25,197 nucleotides of DNA from an uncultured Candidatus Saccharibacteria bacterium (GTDB lineage: Bacteria > Patescibacteriota > WWE3 > UBA101185 > UBA10185). The notes beneath the pieces are model-generated. The model made no database searches. It was given only the letters and a program-made list of their open reading frames with translations, and was not told where the DNA came from. Shown in pieces: positions 6,001-19,859 of the stretch. Position numbers and translations under genes: made by a program. Within the stretch, counting starts at the first letter, position 1. Each line of letters begins with the position of its first letter. Location of the stretch: NCBI GenBank assembly GCA_964617305.1, contig CAZTXE010000001.1, positions 1 to 25,197 of the forward strand, read 5' to 3'.

Positions 6001-9000
6001 CAGCTACTGTTCCAGTGAGAGCCGTGGTTAAACCACCTTTTGTGTGGAGTTGTGCTGTTGGGGAGGTGGTGTTGATGCCGACGTTGCCAGAACCTTGAAT
6101 AGTTAATCTTGTATTTGTTGATTTTGTTCTAAAATAAATATCAGCATTATCATCAGAAGCCGTATTATCTATATATAAATCACTATTAGGATTATATTGT
6201 ATAATTCCACGTCCCCCAGAATAACCTCCTATTACAATAGAACCTGCAACCGCGTGTGCTCCATAACTTGGAGCATAGCCACTAAATGTAGCTTGATTTA
6301 CACTTGAACTATAAACATGTAATGGACTCCCTGGTCCCGTCGTCCCGATGCCGACGTTGCCAGTATTTACGATTAAATCTCCATCACTCTGTAATTCTAA
6401 AACCTGAGCATTAGATGAATCTATTATACTAATATAATCACTTGTTTGAGAAGCAATTCCTTTAATCTTTAAACCATCACGACTAGTAGAACCAATAATT
6501 GCCCCAATTTGCCCTGCTCCTAAATTACCTCCTGCCCTTAAAACATCATCAACAATTAAATAACTTGATACGTGAGCTGTGCCTGTAACATCTAATTTAT
6601 AACTCGGACTCGTCGTCCCGATGCCTACGTTGCCATCAGGAAAAGTATAAGCTCCTGAACCTAATCCAAATACTGCATTCGTCACATCATGAGTTATACT
6701 TACCCATTCATCATTTGCTGTATCTGGTGCCGTTGCAGATTGTATATAGAGGGTTGGATTTGTTTGTGCTGTATGGTCATAATCTTGATTATTTGTATTT
6801 CCAAATACTATTTGATTACCAAGTTGCGTGGAGTTATTTATTAAAAACTGCTGATATAAATGGTCTGCTATAAATTGCATTCTACTACTACCCCCTTCTA
6901 CAAAATTTATTTTTGCTGTTTGTTGCGTATCAGTCGCTCCACCCACCTCCATTCCAGCATCAAAATCAGCCCGACTATCAAATTGAGCTATTCCTGTTGC
7001 CCTAAAAGTTCCACTTACATCTAGCTTCGCCCCTGGACTCGTCGTCCCGATTCCGACGTTTCCATCTGTTGTTACAGCTATTCCAGAATGAGAACCATAT
7101 AATCCAGCTACTTGAGCATAAGTAGCTCCAGCTTGTCCAAACACCCATTTACCTGCATTTCCTTCAAATTGAGCAAAAGCAGAATTAGCGTTCACATACG
7201 TATGTAAAATTGCCCCTGGACTCGTCGTTCCTATTCCGACGTTGCCACCATCTTTTAAGAAAAATCTATTATCAGAAACTCCATCTTCAGTAAATCTTAA
7301 CCCCCCAGAAGCATATTGAACATGCCAATCGTCAGTAGCTCCATCTCCACTTGTCCAATACATCGCACCCTCATATATTGATGACCCCGCAACATGTAAT
7401 TTCCCACCAGGACTCGTCGTCCCGATTCCGACATTCCCAGTTATAGATACATTTGTAAATCCTCCACTGTTAACAGTTAGCAATGTCCCCGCTCCATCTG
7501 CCGAAGTCAAAACTGCGGTTCCTCCTATCCTGTAATCTCCCACATTTGAAGCTGTTTGTGAATTAATAGTGCCATTTACTTCTAGCTTCGCCCCCGGACT
7601 CGTCGTCCCGATACCGACGTTGCCTGAACTTCCTTCAACAAATAATCCAGTTCCTGATGCCCACTCTATTTTTGTATCTACATCAAATTGATTTTCATTT
7701 AAAACAATACCATAACCTGAACCTGTATTTATTTCAATATTTCTATCAGCAGTTAATTGTAATTTGTTATCTGAATCAATTGAAAAATCCCCTACTGAAT
7801 TTATAGATATTTGAGTTGGACTACCTCCGTCATAACCTACTATTAATTGAGGAGAAGCTGTGCTATTTATCTCTAATTTAGCTCCAGGACTCCCCGTCCC
7901 AATCCCCACACGCCCTCGTTTATCCATGACCATCTTACTCACCGCATCTCCATTATCGATGGCAAAGAGATTGCTGTCTTTGTACGCCGTCACCCCAGCC
8001 GCTCCCGCGACATGGTTAGAATCAATCGTAAGAGCGAGATCATTTGGAGCCGTTGCCACAGTGAAGACCTCACTTCCAATCTTAATTGCGTCCCCAATCG
8101 CAAGCTCTGTAGTAAACGCCGTTCCCACTCCTGTAACACTCGCTTCCCCTGCTGTTACCGATACGGTTCCTGTAAGCGCTGTTGTCAGTCCTCCTTTTGT
8201 GTGGAGTTGTGCGGTGGGGGAAGAAATGCCGATACCGACGTTTCCACCACTCTTTATTATCATCTTCACATCAGAGTAAGAAGCATCTGATGAGTCAACA
8301 GTGTTATTATTGGCAAAATATAAATCCCCAACAGCAGATGCCCCTGTTTCTTTCCATGCTATCAAACCTTTTGAAGTAACAGAACCAGACGCAGAAGAGA
8401 AGAGTACTCCTGCTTCATCTCCTGTATTACTTCTCGTATCGTGAACTTTTAAATAAGTATTACCTGATGAACCTTGAACGTGTAATTTCTTTTCTGGCGT
8501 TGCCGTCCCAATCCCCACCTTATCCGCACTCACATCAACAAACAATTTATCAGTATTCACCGTCAAATCACTCGCCACTGTTAAATCGTCAGCCAAGGTG
8601 AGTCCACCCGTTGCCGTGAAGTCTGTTCCCGCATTTCCAATATTAGTAATGATATTGGCATTCATATCCCAGTTTCCGTCATAGGATGTATCTCCACTCA
8701 CCGCCAAGTCCCCCTGCACAGTCAGATTATCTGACACCGCATCTCCGAGCCAGACACTGCCGTCCACTTCCAAGTTTCCTTTGATGTAAACATCATCAAC
8801 AGTTGTGGCATTCGCGTTCCCCGTGTCATCTCCCACCGTCAGTCCAGCTGTCGGAGACGTGTCTCCGATACCGACTTTCCCAGCACTATCAATAAAGAGC
8901 CTGTCACCCGCATTAACTCTCAATGCAAGACTGTCATTTGCATGTGAGTAAGTTATAGATCCAGCATTGCTATCACTCGCATCTGCAAATTCAATTGTAC

Positions 9001-14945: not shown

Positions 14946-14972
14946 CAACCCGGGTTCTAAGAACCCGGGTTG
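14946..14972. repeat. 27-bp REP-like double palindrome directly after the stop of the VIT-vWA-SLH gene
   Basis: caacccgggttc-taa-gaacccgggttg forms a perfect 12-bp stem, and each arm contains the self-palindrome aacccgggtt. No U-tract follows on the minus strand. Confidence 0.8.
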
Positions 14973-17432
14973 TTATTTTTTCATCATTTCAAATATTAAT
15001 TTCAACGCCTCAGCTCGTGTTAATTTTCCGTGCGGTCGAAATGTTCCATCTCCGTACCCGCGCACCATTCCACGATTTACAGCCTCGGAGACCCACGGCT
15101 TTTCCCATCCGATGACATCGGCGAAGATTGATTTCGAGTTCGAACTCTTAGAGTTCGAACTCGAAAAACCAGAAACCGACAACAGAATTTTCACTCCTTC
15201 CGCCCGCGTCAAACTCTGCAATGGTCGGAACGTTCCATCGGGATATCCCTTCACCACACCCGCTTTTGCTAATATTTGCACCGCATCGAAATACTCCGGA
15301 TCGTGCACATCTGTGAAGTTTGGATTCTGAGTTCGAACTCTTAGAGTTCGAACTCCTTCAAATGCCTTCACCACCATCTGTGCAAACTCCGCTCGATCAA
15401 TCGCACGATTCGGATGCAATTTCCCATTAATCTCCGGCTCTAATAATCCTTCTTCCACCGCTCTGACGATATATCCATGCGCCCAATGATTTGCATCATA
15501 ATCTTTAAAGAACGCTCTATCCGATGATTTCACTTCCTCCCGTTCGCCCTCCAAGACGGAGAGACACCGAAACTCTGTGCAGAAATTCACCTCCTCTGCC
15601 ATTCCAAATCCTTCCGCCACAAACTCGGGGAATTTCACAAAGAGTTCTTTTTGCGCTTCTGAAAACGGAGCGATTTTGATATGCGTTTCCGCTCTCACAA
15701 GTTCTGGAAAATTAAACTGTTGCCACACTCCTGTCATTCCGACCAACGCGGAGGAATCCCTTTTTTCAATTTCATACAAAGGCACTCCATTTAAAAATCT
15801 CATTTCTCCTTCAAGCGCATTCGAATCTAGTTTTAAAATTTCCCGAAGTAATTCGATTCGAGAAACGGAATTCAAATTGTCTTTCAATTCGACTCGCGTC
15901 GTTTCATTGTTAAAAAAACTCGTTGCAATTCCAAATGTACGACCGATTGCCAGCAGTGCATCCAAGTCTGAAGTTTGGCGCTCTTCTTTTTTTAAAATTT
16001 CCGCAATTTTTAGCCCCCCCCACCTCCGAGGTACGAAATGCCCCCCTGAGACGTTTTTGATTTCAGACGATCCAACTGTTCGCCCTACAAAGAAAAATGA
16101 ATCTGAGAGCATTTGTGAAAGAAAAAATTTCGGCACCACTTCTTTCATTTCCCATTTCTCGCTATGAACAAACATGTCCTCGACTCCGATCGAGGATCCA
16201 CTCAAGGAGTTTAGTTTTTTCAGAAATTCTTCTTTTTCTACTAAATTTGGACTCGATCGAAAAAGTTTCAACGGAAATCCTCCCGAAATTTTTGAAAAGA
16301 AGGCAAGATCGTTTTCCAAATCCTCTACAAATTGAAGAACCACATAACTTTCAGTAATTTCATTTTCTAGAAACACCGATGGATTCTCTCCCAAGGTTGT
16401 TTCATCAGTGATAAGAAATACCGCTCTGTATTGGGGATCGACCGTCCAACCATGCCCAACGCCCATGAGGGCTTTTGTAATATCAGTCTTCCCTACCGGC
16501 GCTACTCCCGATAAGAACCCAAAAAAGTCCTTTTTGAAATCAAATGTATTGCGTTGAAATTCTTCATCGTGCCAATTAATTCCGTCCGAGAAAAACCCAA
16601 TCCGGATTCGAACCTCCTCAGAAAAATTTTCGAGTAAAAACTCTGTCCAGTCCTTGGCTCTCTTCCAAGGCAATCCCCCAAGCGATCCTGATCTATCTAC
16701 GAGAATAGAAACTTCTTGGATATCTTTCTTTGGTGGTTTTACAAATTGCGCTCGGTATTCCATTCCTAAATACGGCACTCCTATTTCCGCATCGGGGAGA
16801 TTTGACCAAAGGAATTCTATTTGCGATTGAGGCATTCCGTTCCACAAAAAAGTCACCCCATCTGACGTATCAGTGAGTCCGTTTTTTCCAAGGGAATGAT
16901 AAAAATGCTCCACAGATTCCCCAAGCGAGAATGCAATCTCTGTATTTTCAAATGACGCACTGTCACTGAGAAAAACAGGAAGAATCGAAAAATCATCTTG
17001 ATGAGAAATTGGAACATTGAACACTTTTTTTGTTCTAACTTTCTGTCGCCCTCCTACGGCTATGTTTTCTGATCGAAAGAGCCTTGGGAACTGGCTCGTT
17101 CCCCACCCCAGCAGTGAGGCATCTTTGCGCTCCTGCGCTTGTGTAAAAAGATATACCAGTCGTTCTATTCCTTCCAAAGAAGAATACGCTCGTCCCTCCA
17201 TCCCTACGAAGAAATCCGAAATTTCCACCCCCTGCTCAAGGGGTTCTAATTCCTGAAAAACAATTTCTTTTTCTGAAGGATTGTAGAGCTCTGTAACGAT
17301 TTCTATACGAGCATTGTCCCCCTCTACATTAATGTGAACCTGTTTCTGGGTGACTTCAAGAATGCTCTCCGAAAAAAACGCAGACGTGCTGTTTGTTAAA
17401 AAAATCAAAAGGATCAGTTTCCACAGTTTCAT
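14973..17432 (-). CDS. Secreted VIT + von Willebrand factor A domain protein with three C-terminal S-layer homology (SLH) domains, 819 aa
   Basis: Signal peptide MKLWKLILLIFLTNSTSA; VIT-like VHINVEGDNARIEIVTELYNP; vWA ILVDRSGSL (DxSxS). SLH repeats are FKDYDANHWAHGYI..HPNRAIDRAEFAQM, FTDV..GVVKGYPDGTFRPLQSLTRAEG and FADV..GMVRGYGDGTFRPHGKLTRAEA. Confidence 0.9.
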   Translation of the reverse strand: MKLWKLILLIFLTNSTSAFFSESILEVTQKQVHINVEGDNARIEIVTELYNPSEKEIVFQELEPLEQGVEISDFFVGMEGRAYSSLEGIERLVYLFTQAQERKDASLLGWGTSQFPRLFRSENIAVGGRQKVRTKKVFNVPISHQDDFSILPVFLSDSASFENTEIAFSLGESVEHFYHSLGKNGLTDTSDGVTFLWNGMPQSQIEFLWSNLPDAEIGVPYLGMEYRAQFVKPPKKDIQEVSILVDRSGSLGGLPWKRAKDWTEFLLENFSEEVRIRIGFFSDGINWHDEEFQRNTFDFKKDFFGFLSGVAPVGKTDITKALMGVGHGWTVDPQYRAVFLITDETTLGENPSVFLENEITESYVVLQFVEDLENDLAFFSKISGGFPLKLFRSSPNLVEKEEFLKKLNSLSGSSIGVEDMFVHSEKWEMKEVVPKFFLSQMLSDSFFFVGRTVGSSEIKNVSGGHFVPRRWGGLKIAEILKKEERQTSDLDALLAIGRTFGIATSFFNNETTRVELKDNLNSVSRIELLREILKLDSNALEGEMRFLNGVPLYEIEKRDSSALVGMTGVWQQFNFPELVRAETHIKIAPFSEAQKELFVKFPEFVAEGFGMAEEVNFCTEFRCLSVLEGEREEVKSSDRAFFKDYDANHWAHGYIVRAVEEGLLEPEINGKLHPNRAIDRAEFAQMVVKAFEGVRTLRVRTQNPNFTDVHDPEYFDAVQILAKAGVVKGYPDGTFRPLQSLTRAEGVKILLSVSGFSSSNSKSSNSKSIFADVIGWEKPWVSEAVNRGMVRGYGDGTFRPHGKLTRAEALKLIFEMMKK
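15132..15166. repeat. In-frame palindromic element inside the CDS (27-bp core, 16-bp stem)
   Basis: tttc-gagttcgaactc-tta-gagttcgaactc-gaaa; encodes FSSSNSKSSNSK in the linker between SLH2 and SLH3. Confidence 0.85.
15329..15355. repeat. Second copy of the 27-bp coding palindromic element, read in a different frame
   Basis: gagttcgaactc-tta-gagttcgaactc is identical to 15136-15162 but encodes GVRTLRVRTQ in the linker between SLH1 and SLH2. Confidence 0.85.
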
Positions 17433-17474: not shown

Positions 17475-17500
17475 TAGGCGCGGTCACGTGACCGCGCCTA
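17475..17500. repeat. Perfect 26-bp palindrome resembling a GTAG-family REP
   Basis: taggcgcggtcacgtgaccgcgccta is its own reverse complement. The minus strand reads GTAG-GCGCGGTCACGTGACCGCGC-CTAT. It lies 16 bp past the stop of the PKD gene. Confidence 0.75.
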
Positions 17501-17516: not shown

Positions 17517-19859
17517 TTATTCTGATTCCCCTTCTACCGTAATCCGATCTTTAAATGATGCGACAACACCCTTGGCATCGGTAATCTTGAGAGAAACATC
17601 GAAGTCTCCTGCAAACTCATAGATATGTGTTGGCATGAAATCACGAGATACGTTTCCATCTCCAAAGGTCCAAAGATAGTTTGCAATAGACCCTGTTGAT
17701 TGCGTTGGATCGAATTGCACTTCGAGTCCGTTATCAACATTCGCAATCGCTTCAAAGCTCGCACTCAATGGAAGTGATCGAACGGAGATCAGTGTTTCTG
17801 TTTCCGCAATTTCCTGTTCTGATGTGAGCACCTTGAGTGTCACCGGAAATGATCCCGCACTATTGAATTCATACGAAAGCTTTGCGCCTGCTTGAATCGG
17901 TTCTTTCCCCGGAAAGGTCCATGTGTAGAGTACTATTTCTCCTTTGTCTGTTGTAGAACCAGAACCGTCAAACTCTACTGTCAGTGGAACCGTTCCAAAC
18001 CCAGGATCAGCATTGATACGAGCCTGAACTCCCGTCCGATCAACAATAACTCTCTTTATAGAGGTGAACTCATTTTCATAGGAATCAACAACCGTAAGTG
18101 CTAAATCATATTCTCCTGATTCTTTGTAAACATACGTTGTCTTTTCTTTGAAATCATCATACACACCGTCGTTCTCGAAATCCCATTTCCATTCAACTGG
18201 ATTATGAAGCGCTGATACATCCGCACGAAGCTCTACCTCAAGTGGAGAATTCCCTCTTAATATATCCTCTGTAGAAGCGGGATTGGTAATAATTATTGGT
18301 TTCGCTCCTTCCAATTGTGGCGTCACCGTAATTATCTGTTCTACTTTATCACGCTCTCCGACATCATTTTCGATGATGAGTGTCACCATATATTCTCCTG
18401 GTGCTCTGAACGTTCTTTCTAGTTTTCGTCCCACAACAATTTCTGTTTCTCCTTCAACTTGCCACTGATAGGAACTAATCGTTCCAAATCGTGTGTACGA
18501 TTGCTCTCCAGAAAGTTTCACCGAAAATGGAGGCACGCCCACAAAGCCTTTGTCAGAAACAATTTTTCCTTGAATATTTTCTGCTGATTCCTCAACAATA
18601 ATCAATTTTTTGAGAACCGCTGTATCATGATTTGTTCCTGTCACCCGAAGTGAGACTTCCACCTGTCCAACTTTTGAAAAGGTATGTTCAAAAGATGTTT
18701 TCTCATTCTCAATTATTTCAAATGAACCATCTCCATCCATGTCCCACTCATAAAGTATAATTTCACCATCTGGATCGTTTGATGCTCTTGCATTAAATTG
18801 CACCGTAAGGGGAACAGGGCCTTGTTCTTTGTCGACTGAGTACAGTGCTTGTACGGCTTCGTTCACAATAATAACTTGTTTTTCTGATGTATACGTCTTC
18901 TCCATTTGTGCGGAAGGAGAGTAATAATCGACCGAAACAAGCACCATGTATTTTCCGTTATTGTTTCCTTTTTTGAGGAACCGGTGTGCAACTTTTGGTC
19001 CTGTTGCATCAAATCTTCCATCGCTTTCAAAATCCCAATTAATTTGTCGTACGAGGTCTTCATCGATTTGTTTGAACAGTTCCGTCCCGACATCGAACTC
19101 CACCATCACTGGCGCATGAAGCCCAATAACTTTCTCTGGAACCGTTGCTATAATTGAGTTATTGATCTGTCGGTGCTCTGCATTGGCATTTGTAATAATC
19201 CAAAAGATTCCAACCCAAAGGACACAAACGACAACAAATATTCCGAAGAAGAATGCCGATTTTTTTCCATATTCTCCACGATTCACGGCTTCCTTTCCGA
19301 GCATTAACCATTGGAAAAATTTAATAAGAGTTCCAATCAGAAAAAAGATTGCTAAAAATCCAAAGATGTAATTCGTCAGATTTAACAATGTCGATTGGAG
19401 ATCTGTTTCTTGAATATTAAGCGCTTCGAATAAAGGATTTGAAACATCTCCTCCTAAAAGTCCCCACAAAAGGAGAACGTAAAAGATGGCGAGTAATATT
19501 CCTCCGAACGTTATGAACCATCGGAACAATGCCCATGCTCCCATTTTTCTTCCAGAAGCCATCTCTTCAATATCTTCCTTTTTTTCTGCTGGGGCAGCCT
19601 CTTCTGGTAATTCTTCTTCGTGAATACTTTCCTCCGCTGTAGGAGCCTCTGTCACTGGTGCAGCCTCCACAGGTGCTGGAGCTTCTGTTTGTTCAACAGG
19701 TGCTTCTGCAATTGGTACTTCCGCCACAGGAACTGCTGGAATAACCGGAGCCTCTTCTGTAGGCGCGGTTGATTCAATCTCTGGAAGAGAAGTATTTGGT
19801 GCCGGAGTTCCCTCTGTATCTAAAGAAGGATCTGTATTTGGGTTTGTGTTTTCGTCCAT
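17517..19859 (-). CDS. Membrane protein with an acidic Pro/Ala/Glu-rich N-tail, three transmembrane helices and ~5 extracellular PKD domains, 780 aa
   Basis: ORF track. Three hydrophobic segments lie around aa 108-222. PKD motifs include PLTVQFNARASNDPDGEIILYEWDMDGDG, PLTVEFDGSGSTTDKGEIVLYTWTF and VQFDPTQSTGSIANYLWTFGDG. Confidence 0.88.
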   Translation of the reverse strand: MDENTNPNTDPSLDTEGTPAPNTSLPEIESTAPTEEAPVIPAVPVAEVPIAEAPVEQTEAPAPVEAAPVTEAPTAEESIHEEELPEEAAPAEKKEDIEEMASGRKMGAWALFRWFITFGGILLAIFYVLLLWGLLGGDVSNPLFEALNIQETDLQSTLLNLTNYIFGFLAIFFLIGTLIKFFQWLMLGKEAVNRGEYGKKSAFFFGIFVVVCVLWVGIFWIITNANAEHRQINNSIIATVPEKVIGLHAPVMVEFDVGTELFKQIDEDLVRQINWDFESDGRFDATGPKVAHRFLKKGNNNGKYMVLVSVDYYSPSAQMEKTYTSEKQVIIVNEAVQALYSVDKEQGPVPLTVQFNARASNDPDGEIILYEWDMDGDGSFEIIENEKTSFEHTFSKVGQVEVSLRVTGTNHDTAVLKKLIIVEESAENIQGKIVSDKGFVGVPPFSVKLSGEQSYTRFGTISSYQWQVEGETEIVVGRKLERTFRAPGEYMVTLIIENDVGERDKVEQIITVTPQLEGAKPIIITNPASTEDILRGNSPLEVELRADVSALHNPVEWKWDFENDGVYDDFKEKTTYVYKESGEYDLALTVVDSYENEFTSIKRVIVDRTGVQARINADPGFGTVPLTVEFDGSGSTTDKGEIVLYTWTFPGKEPIQAGAKLSYEFNSAGSFPVTLKVLTSEQEIAETETLISVRSLPLSASFEAIANVDNGLEVQFDPTQSTGSIANYLWTFGDGNVSRDFMPTHIYEFAGDFDVSLKITDAKGVVASFKDRITVEGESE

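Follow-up and report, generated by a model that had tools for sequence, protein, structure and literature searches.

Double palindromes within and behind an SLH gene as probable REP-like repeats of a marine CPR clade that carries a RAYT-type transposase

The locus described here raises the question why the same short palindromic DNA should be present twice in one protein-coding gene and be read there in two different frames. The window, that is the whole stretch of 25,197 nucleotides analysed (contig CAZTXE010000001.1 of assembly GCA_964617305.1, binned as an uncultured Candidatus Saccharibacteria bacterium), contains three 27-bp double palindromes, two of them inside a gene for a protein with SLH domains and one directly behind this gene. 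The original prediction had described the three elements and the different reading frames of the two in-gene copies, and sequence, coordinates, frames and positions in the linkers between the SLH domains were all verified. The evidence presented below suggests that the window elements are probably hairpin repeats similar to repetitive extragenic palindromic (REP) sequences and tied to a REP-associated tyrosine transposase (RAYT; TnpA-REP-like, Y1/HUH type), in a marine clade of the candidate phyla radiation (CPR) labelled 'Peribacteria'. The features concerned are the following:

14946-14972, minus strand: CCCGGG-type 27-nt element; plus strand CAACCCGGGTTCTAAGAACCCGGGTTG, minus-strand reading C-AACCCGGGTT-CTTAG-AACCCGGGTT-G
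15136-15162, minus strand: TTCGAA-type 27-nt element in the linker between SLH 2 and SLH 3; plus strand GAGTTCGAACTCTTAGAGTTCGAACTC, translated SSNSKSSNS
15329-15355, minus strand: TTCGAA-type 27-nt element in the linker between SLH 1 and SLH 2; plus strand GAGTTCGAACTCTTAGAGTTCGAACTC, translated VRTLRVRT
14973-17432, minus strand: host gene of 819 aa with VIT/vWA and three C-terminal SLH domains (Pfam SLH 2.4e-30, vWA weak)

The three elements have a common design, N-P10-CTWAG-P10-N', which is an odd palindrome with P10 representing a 10-nt self-palindrome with central CG. In the case of the 15136 copy, the palindrome really comprises 35 nt (15132-15166). The two arm types of the window, AGTTCGAACT and AACCCGGGTT, differ at six positions, and all six differences are compensating transitions that leave the central CG unchanged. 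The two copies of GAGTTCGAACTCTTAGAGTTCGAACTC, for which shuffles of the window gave an expectation of 0 matches, are identical in DNA and located 193 bp apart. As 193 is not a multiple of three, the reading frame is shifted by one, so that one copy yields SSNSKSSNS and the other VRTLRVRT. In the frame used by the 15136 copy, a stop codon is avoided only with the TAA-centre orientation, as can be read from the sequence. An alignment with 25 orthologues showed that the in-gene copies are located in the two inter-SLH linkers, directly ahead of FADV and FTDV. The 14946-14972 element follows the stop codon of the SLH gene without any gap, and the likely start of a giant fibre gene is located about 150 nt downstream of it.

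When folded as single-stranded DNA (ssDNA), every element formed one hairpin, with energies from -12 to -17 kcal/mol and z from -5 to -7.5. The 15136-15162 hairpin reached -17.3 kcal/mol (z = -7.5) and the 14946-14972 hairpin -14.6 kcal/mol (z = -5.7). A single arm alone gave no fold. The copy behind the SLH gene has a strong stem and scores terminator-like on both strands; the T-run is good on the plus strand (TTATTTTTT) and poor on the genes' own minus strand (AATGGTGTTT). The whole stretch was assembled identically in Logan contigs from at least five marine runs of several studies, which excludes an assembly artefact; in marine samples, the organism of the window is present at 7-18x.

Related elements were found well beyond the window. 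A scan of JGI metagenome contigs yielded 14 loci with the 21-nt TTCGAA core, and a scan of species-representative genomes yielded the CCCGGG core in the metagenome-assembled genome (MAG) G134, labelled "Candidatus Peribacteria". The Logan contigs of the same runs included further contigs with the same 27-mers in unrelated flanks. The invariant part across these loci is a 25-nt core; the outer base pair is variable (G-C, C-G or A-T) and complementary in 27 of the 32 unique copies. In-frame copies read as SSNSKSSN occur in recF, priA and the RAYT gene described below, and copies read as VRTLRVRT occur in a femX-like gene and its orthologue, in which the element is 100% identical and the flanks are about 70% identical. 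A further in-frame copy is present in an SLH gene, other copies are intergenic, and the third frame (EFELLEFEL) was found only in doubtful open frames. When all loci were pooled, 28 of the 100 unique doublets were located deep within open frames with a length of 200 aa or more. A match to the CCCGGG core in a Syntrophomonadaceae sequence (L024) had no matching 25-nt pattern and was taken as chance.

The basic module of the family is a self-palindrome of 10 to 12 nt with the consensus A-R-N-Y-C-G-R-N-Y-T, which is usually present as a doublet. In the commonest type, the starts of the two units are separated by 15 nt and an invariant CTWAG lies between the units, resulting in a near-perfect odd palindrome of 25 to 27 nt and a hairpin of 12 to 13 bp; wider doublets extend up to 43 nt. 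In genomes of about 1 Mb, to which all copy counts refer, such units were abundant. G134 contains 64 AACCCGGGTT units (control 0), and the full list of their positions showed nearly all of them to be paired, with spacings of about 15, 22, and 33 nt; the CCCGGG 25-nt core itself occurs twice in this genome. For AGTTCGAACT, 70 units were counted in G162, 54 in G138, 14 in G134, 8 in G136, and 6 in G137, and for GATACGTATC, 54 units in G137, 25 in G134, 22 in G136, and 10 in G138, with controls of 0 to 3 in both cases. The dominant arm type differs genome by genome, as is classical for REPs. At G134:C11:4098-4143, four AGTTCGAACT units are arranged head-to-tail with a 12-nt period.

Pairing within the hairpin is conserved despite the changes in sequence. 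Among 14 distinct 27-mers, the long hairpin showed double changes at 9 of its 13 pairs, and 96.7% of the cells were paired, a result reached by 0 of 500 shuffles. A model with two mini-hairpins fits the covariation as well as the long hairpin, and folding energy favours the long hairpin. The data represent a doubly symmetric constraint that is compatible with either fold. In one SLH linker described below (linker 2 of orthologue L004), two different self-palindromes are combined in one doublet. The proposal in the original prediction that DNA or RNA structure is what propagates is supported by the occurrence of the same 25-nt core in unrelated genes and in three frames and by the covariation of the arms. 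Two variants stood apart from the common form. The variant AGTCCGAACT-CTAAG-AGTTCGGACT (L083; G162:C6:26253-26277) can form the long hairpin only, the palindromy of each arm being broken. The variant AACTCGGGTT-CTAAG-AATCCGGGTT (L084; G136:C3:37037-37061) pairs through G-T on just one of the two strands, a hint that a single strand may be the functional one.

A candidate enzyme was identified at locus L008, where two tandem open reading frames (ORFs; 7028-7567 and 7688-8233) encode the motifs LPNHFHFLL and YIEWNAVKH. The two ORFs matched the Pfam family Y1_Tnp (PF01797) with 39 and 35 bits at a cut-off of 23, and their best NCBIfam family was REP_Tyr_transpos (REP-associated tyrosine transposase; E 3e-17). 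The best match in PDB was E. coli TnpAREP (4ER8); it was weak, with the HUH and Tyr motifs aligned with LPNHFHFLL and YIEWNAVKH. A TTCGAA doublet immediately precedes the start of the first ORF, and another doublet follows this ORF. Both ORFs contain an in-frame 27-mer right after the HUH motif, which is of the TTCGAA type in one case and GGATACGTATCC-TAA-GGATACGTATCC in the other. P10 doublets bracket the RAYT-like gene in all eight loci examined, namely L008 (twice), L021, L031 (G134), L059, L060, L061, and L062, and in most of the eight a doublet is also present inside the gene. The arm types at these loci were AGTTCGAACT, AACCCGGGTT, GGATCCGGATCC, AGACCGGTCT, and AGTCCGGACT. The in-frame elements within the gene are located as follows:

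L008:7243-7269, L008:7903-7929, L021:1707-1738, L031:1789-1822, and L059:2705-2729: in-frame elements in the loop right after the HUH motif, with an arm type that varies from gene to gene

In an alignment of 39 clade members, the insert after the HUH motif was hypervariable and element-encoded (SSNS..KSSN, NPGS..EPG, DTYPKDTYP, DPDPTPDPDP), and it was absent in distant members. RAYT matches numbered one or two per genome, and the gene order bigSLH-RAYT-recF(-der) was kept in six loci (L008, L021, L059, L060, L061, and G134). Judged from this conserved place, the gene would fit a domesticated, single-copy, vertically inherited RAYT and not an insertion sequence. A structure-recognising mobiliser, with a RAYT/HUH gene flanked by such elements, had been anticipated by the original prediction, and a gene of this kind was indeed found, in the related genomes and not in the bin of the window. 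Upstream of the first RAYT gene of L008 (L008:6829-6960), single AGTTCGAACT units about 25 to 35 nt apart are present besides the doublets. Half-site arrays have been reported for some REPtrons, and the cluster in L008 resembles them.

A comparison of orthologous sites revealed turnover among the elements of this family. SLH linkers with P10 doublets were found in the orthologues L003, L004, L005, and G137, and also in the distant orthologue of G157, which is 36% identical and has CCCGGG doublets in its linkers. In linker 1, the window and L003 both have the TTCGAA type, the L003 copy with a flipped centre base. G137 has the TACGTA type at this position (GGATACGTATCC-CAAAA-GGATACGTATCC) in a stretch that is otherwise almost identical to L003, and L004 has a single AACCCGGGTT unit. 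Linker 2 is occupied by the TTCGAA type in the window, by a 35-nt TACGTA doublet in L003 and G137, by a CCCGGG/TACGTA hybrid in L004, and by a GGATCC type in L005; in Logan contigs with a homologous SLH gene, the linker-2 position holds the double palindrome GGATCCGGATCC-TATCCC-GGATCCGGATCC. Behind the stop codon, the window has a CCCGGG doublet and L004 a 20-bp palindrome centred on CCCGGG; L003 and G137 both have GGGTCCGGACCC at this position. In recF, the arm types likewise differ between orthologues at two loops, and in several cases the arm type at the orthologous recF and SLH sites is the dominant type of the respective genome. The linkers and the 3' end of the SLH gene are a recurrent address for elements across orthologues. 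As linker lengths are similar across orthologues and other palindromes are present at the same sites, what is seen is replacement at occupied sites and not a contrast between filled and empty ones. The earlier claim that elements were inserted into the linkers holds for their location in the linkers; a clean insertion event did not emerge, since the linkers of the orthologues are equally long and contain other palindromes of the family.

Further copies in the same genome, for which the original prediction had called, were not found in the bin to which the window is assigned (G000), whereas related genomes contain 54 to 70 arm units. For this bin, the outcome that the original prediction had named as refuting (a lack of other copies) thus formally applies. 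A bin-wide scan of G000 detected only the three P-loop-P double palindromes of the window plus an unrelated tandem repeat on contig C2, and the exact and degenerate 25- to 27-nt patterns were absent from 60 relatives of G000 and from all 134 genomes of its class. The window contig, C1, differs from this bin in composition: its GC content is 0.438, compared to 0.35 to 0.39 in the other large contigs, and in tetranucleotide usage it is 0.035 away from the remaining contigs of the bin, compared to a distance of 0.010 to 0.013 for typical contigs. When the giant gene was left out, the tetranucleotide distance of the window to G134 was only 0.013. The SLH-vWA protein of the window shares 80% identity with its counterpart in G137 and 61% with the one in G136, and both of these genomes are relatives of G134. 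The recF product of G000 is only 30% identical to those of G134, G136, and G138. By these measures C1 is probably mis-binned, a recent transfer being less likely, and its true host is most likely a G137-like member of the RAYT-carrying clade. Mis-binning is the best explanation for the lack of further copies in G000, and as C1 does not fit this bin, the genomes of the G000 class that lack the pattern are the wrong relatives for such a search.

Two other repeats were noted in the bin. In C2 of G000, GATACCATATC is repeated about 2.5 times in tandem at two positions (18565-18590 and 18781-18808), which are 219 bp apart and read in the same frame (YHIDTISIP). These repeats are located in a 307-aa ORF of phage- or plasmid-like composition; they look iteron-like and are unrelated to the double palindromes. 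In the window, a perfect 26-bp GC-rich palindrome (TAGGCGCGGTCAC/GTGACCGCGCCTA) with the minus-strand 5' foot GTAG is present at 17475-17500, between the PKD gene and the SLH-vWA gene. No second copy of it was found among the data on hand, and at the orthologous spot L005 and L064 have a different 28-bp palindrome (GCAGGAGCGACGGC/GCCGTCGCTCCTGC).

Direct observations comprise the membership in the family, the copy numbers, the bracketing of RAYT genes, the covariation, and the turnover at a site. In the mechanism that we infer for RAYT catalysis, for the replacement, and for the translation of the in-gene copies, a dimeric HUH enzyme would recognise the hairpins on ssDNA and cut or rejoin them, in the way E. 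coli TnpA-REP acts on REPs. Copies would be seeded or overwritten where a hairpin is already present, and such overwriting would explain why sister genomes have different arm types at the same addresses. Among these addresses are the SLH linkers, the 3' end of the SLH gene, two loops of recF, and, in the RAYT gene, the loop that follows its own HUH motif. A copy inside a gene would survive only if its length keeps the frame, if the frame is read without a stop codon, and if the site is a tolerant loop or linker; it would then be translated as a short hydrophilic linker peptide. Many REPs act as 3' hairpins, either as terminators or as mRNA stabilisers, and the copy behind the SLH gene probably has such a role.

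A more far-reaching version of this mechanism would be that the RAYT maintains hairpin cassettes at fixed addresses by repeatedly overwriting doublets with the currently dominant arm type of the genome, beyond a mere scattering of repeats. We put this version forward tentatively and consider it unlikely. If it were true, coding sequence at dozens of sites would evolve in concert with the specificity of an enzyme, and a dimeric enzyme would read the stem duplex symmetrically, owing to the dyad provided by the self-palindromic arms.

Several results weigh against an assignment of the window elements to a RAYT system. Insertion itself is not demonstrated, because neither a clean empty site nor a target duplication was found. 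Queries with joined flanks against all fetched loci revealed no 27-nt gap except in self matches, the orthologues of the queried sites always having another element or a partly different loop, and the 32 unique spacing-15 copies showed no consistent target-site duplication, direct repeat, or target motif. The flanks have at most a weak asymmetry (two bases ahead of the core on the 5' side, 11 of 27 copies have C, and the mirror position on the 3' side is mostly A), which is linked to the orientation of the centre base. In G000, there was no Y1_Tnp match and, outside the 410-bp stretch with the three elements, no excess of A...CG...T palindromes (23 observed versus about 21 expected). G137, the genome closest to the window contig, also had no RAYT match; as recF, the neighbour of the RAYT gene, is missing there too, the RAYT locus may simply be unassembled. 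The REP_Tyr_transpos score of 62.7 is below the equivalog cut-off of 80 bits. No GT[AG]G or CGTC foot, the defining feature of classical REPs, is present in or beside the 27-mers, and the self-palindromy of the arms is not accounted for by a simple hairpin model. Finally, the correlation between the exact 25-nt sub-form and the presence of a RAYT is only loose: among the 61 genomes searched around G134, 5 contained the pattern and 22 a RAYT, with 4 of the 5 belonging to the latter.

Some of these results would also be expected if the window hairpins were once seeded by a RAYT and are now immobile, being kept as harmless linker codons and as a useful 3' hairpin. This is the strongest of the alternatives, although we still place it on the unlikely side. 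It would agree with the lack of a RAYT match in the bin and in G137, with the presence of three copies only, all within 410 bp, and with the linker-1 element that is common to the L003 orthologue (about 83% identical) and therefore predates the split. Against it, the copies are perfect palindromes that show no decay. Moreover, the near-identical G137 and L003 differ in the type of the linker-1 element, which indicates recent turnover in this lineage, and G137 holds 54 GATACGTATC units. The missing RAYT of G137, like its missing recF, may reflect an assembly gap.

An improbable alternative is that the elements are regulatory sites of the host, either tandem palindromic operators for a dimeric protein or bidirectional terminators, which recur by selection and are linked to the RAYT only incidentally. 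The perfect dyad symmetry of each arm, with an invariant CG in the middle, would suit a dimeric protein on double-stranded DNA; many G134 copies are intergenic, at gene ends and with A/T-rich flanks, and the intergenic copy of the window is terminator-like. Terminators or operators are implausible, however, deep in open frames, including housekeeping genes such as recF, priA, and the femX-like gene, and more than a quarter of the doublets (28 of 100) reside in such frames. In addition, the identical 25-mer is present in unrelated genes of several genomes. Genome-specific arm types in combination with tight RAYT bracketing are instead the signature of REP/RAYT systems.

We likewise give little credence to an independent family of mini-insertions similar to Rickettsia palindromic elements (RPEs) or miniature inverted-repeat transposable elements (MITEs), moved without any role of a RAYT, for instance by a nuclease (GIY-YIG or another type) or through template switching at the palindromic sites. 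In favour of it, the in-frame occupancy of ORFs resembles that of RPEs, and the GT[AG]G foot is missing. Against it, 8 out of 8 RAYT loci are bracketed by the elements, no structure of terminal inverted repeats plus target-site duplication was present, and 27 nt is far below the size of RPEs or MITEs. The classic restriction sites in the arms (TTCGAA, CCCGGG, GGATCC, TACGTA) have a polylinker-like look and might suggest an artefact of assembly or sequencing, such as chimeras at palindromes or contaminating linkers. This explanation has practically no chance of being correct, as it is refuted by independent assemblies from many runs, studies, and pipelines (Logan, JGI, ENA, and NCBI MAGs), by open frames, and by covarying elements.

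If the window elements are REP-like repeats tied to a RAYT, as we consider probable, the logic of REP/RAYT systems would extend to ultra-small CPR genomes, with a quarter of the copies written into proteins, among them products of essential replication and repair genes, cell-surface anchors, and the transposase itself. The RAYT-like gene is a concrete candidate for the enzyme behind tiny in-frame palindromes across CPR, and its variants, together with the corresponding arm types, offer natural matched hairpin/enzyme pairs for studying how a RAYT reads a hairpin. For annotation, the results are a warning that repeats can be the source of linkers of low complexity, for example SSNSKSSNS, DPDPIPDPDP, or NPGS..EPGF. 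In addition, the analysis flagged a contig that is likely mis-binned.

Combinations of REPs or REPINs with a RAYT (TnpA-REP), including those with E. coli YafM/TnpAREP (PDB 4ER8) and with the REPINs of Pseudomonas, have reportedly been described as REPtrons (Nunvar 2010; Ton-Hoang 2012; Bertels & Rainey 2011). Such systems are usually described as extragenic and mainly from Proteobacteria, Cyanobacteria, and Bacteroidetes; no description of a REP/RAYT system in Patescibacteria, Gracilibacteria, or CPR was found in the literature. The elements described here share with them short hairpin repeats in dozens of copies, lineage-specific sequence families of which several may be present in one genome, a Y1/HUH gene that is single-copy, passed on vertically, and bordered by copies of its repeat, and many copies located just 3' of ORFs. 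They differ in being perfect odd palindromes of 25 to 27 nt with self-palindromic arms, an invariant CTWAG centre, and a central CG. Unlike REPs in the strict sense, they are not confined to extragenic DNA, as about a quarter of the copies, and two of the three in the window, are in frame inside genes. Furthermore, their hosts are CPR/Patescibacteria, and the RAYT clade lies below the NCBIfam equivalog cut-off.

Other known systems are more distant. Insertion sequences of the IS200/IS605 family (IS608 TnpA) likewise have an enzyme of the Y1/HUH superfamily, use ssDNA hairpins as recognition elements, and cause no target duplication; in contrast to them, no transposon unit whose left and right ends differ was seen here, and the gene occurs in single copy at a syntenic position instead of being multi-copy and mobile. 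The elements are also unlike MITEs, as the 32 unique spacing-15 copies lack terminal inverted repeats plus target-site duplications. RPEs have a length of about 100 to 150 bp, originate from Rickettsia, and have no known transposase. The parallel to Rickettsia drawn in the original prediction applies insofar as palindromic repeats are present in frame in ORFs, in more than one frame, and are tolerated in loops. The elements described here, however, have a length of 25 to 27 nt (up to 43 nt for wider doublets) and are associated with a RAYT, and REP/RAYT systems, including published REPs inside genes, are the closest parallel.

REPs inside genes, often in genes for replication or repair, have been reported for Opitutus, Thauera, and Xanthomonas recB, and for RPE-4/6 of R. 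conorii (Di Nocera et al. 2013, PMC3733652). Insertions of REPs inside tnpAREP genes are known for subclass 2.4, and REP classes without GT[AG]G have been described as well (Quentin et al. 2018, PMC6006769). Like these in-gene REPs, the copies described here are in frame, many of them in replication or repair genes (recF and priA), some are located within the transposase gene, and different elements occupy about the same orthologous site. In contrast to the published cases, they belong to another lineage and have another REP architecture, and their fixed addresses, including linkers of surface proteins, are kept across many genomes. REPs inside genes and REPs inside tnpAREP genes are thus already published, and the system described here departs from known REP/RAYT systems by the lack of the GT[AG]G or CGTC foot, its perfect odd palindrome with self-palindromic arms and an invariant CTWAG centre, its high share of in-frame copies, and its CPR hosts.

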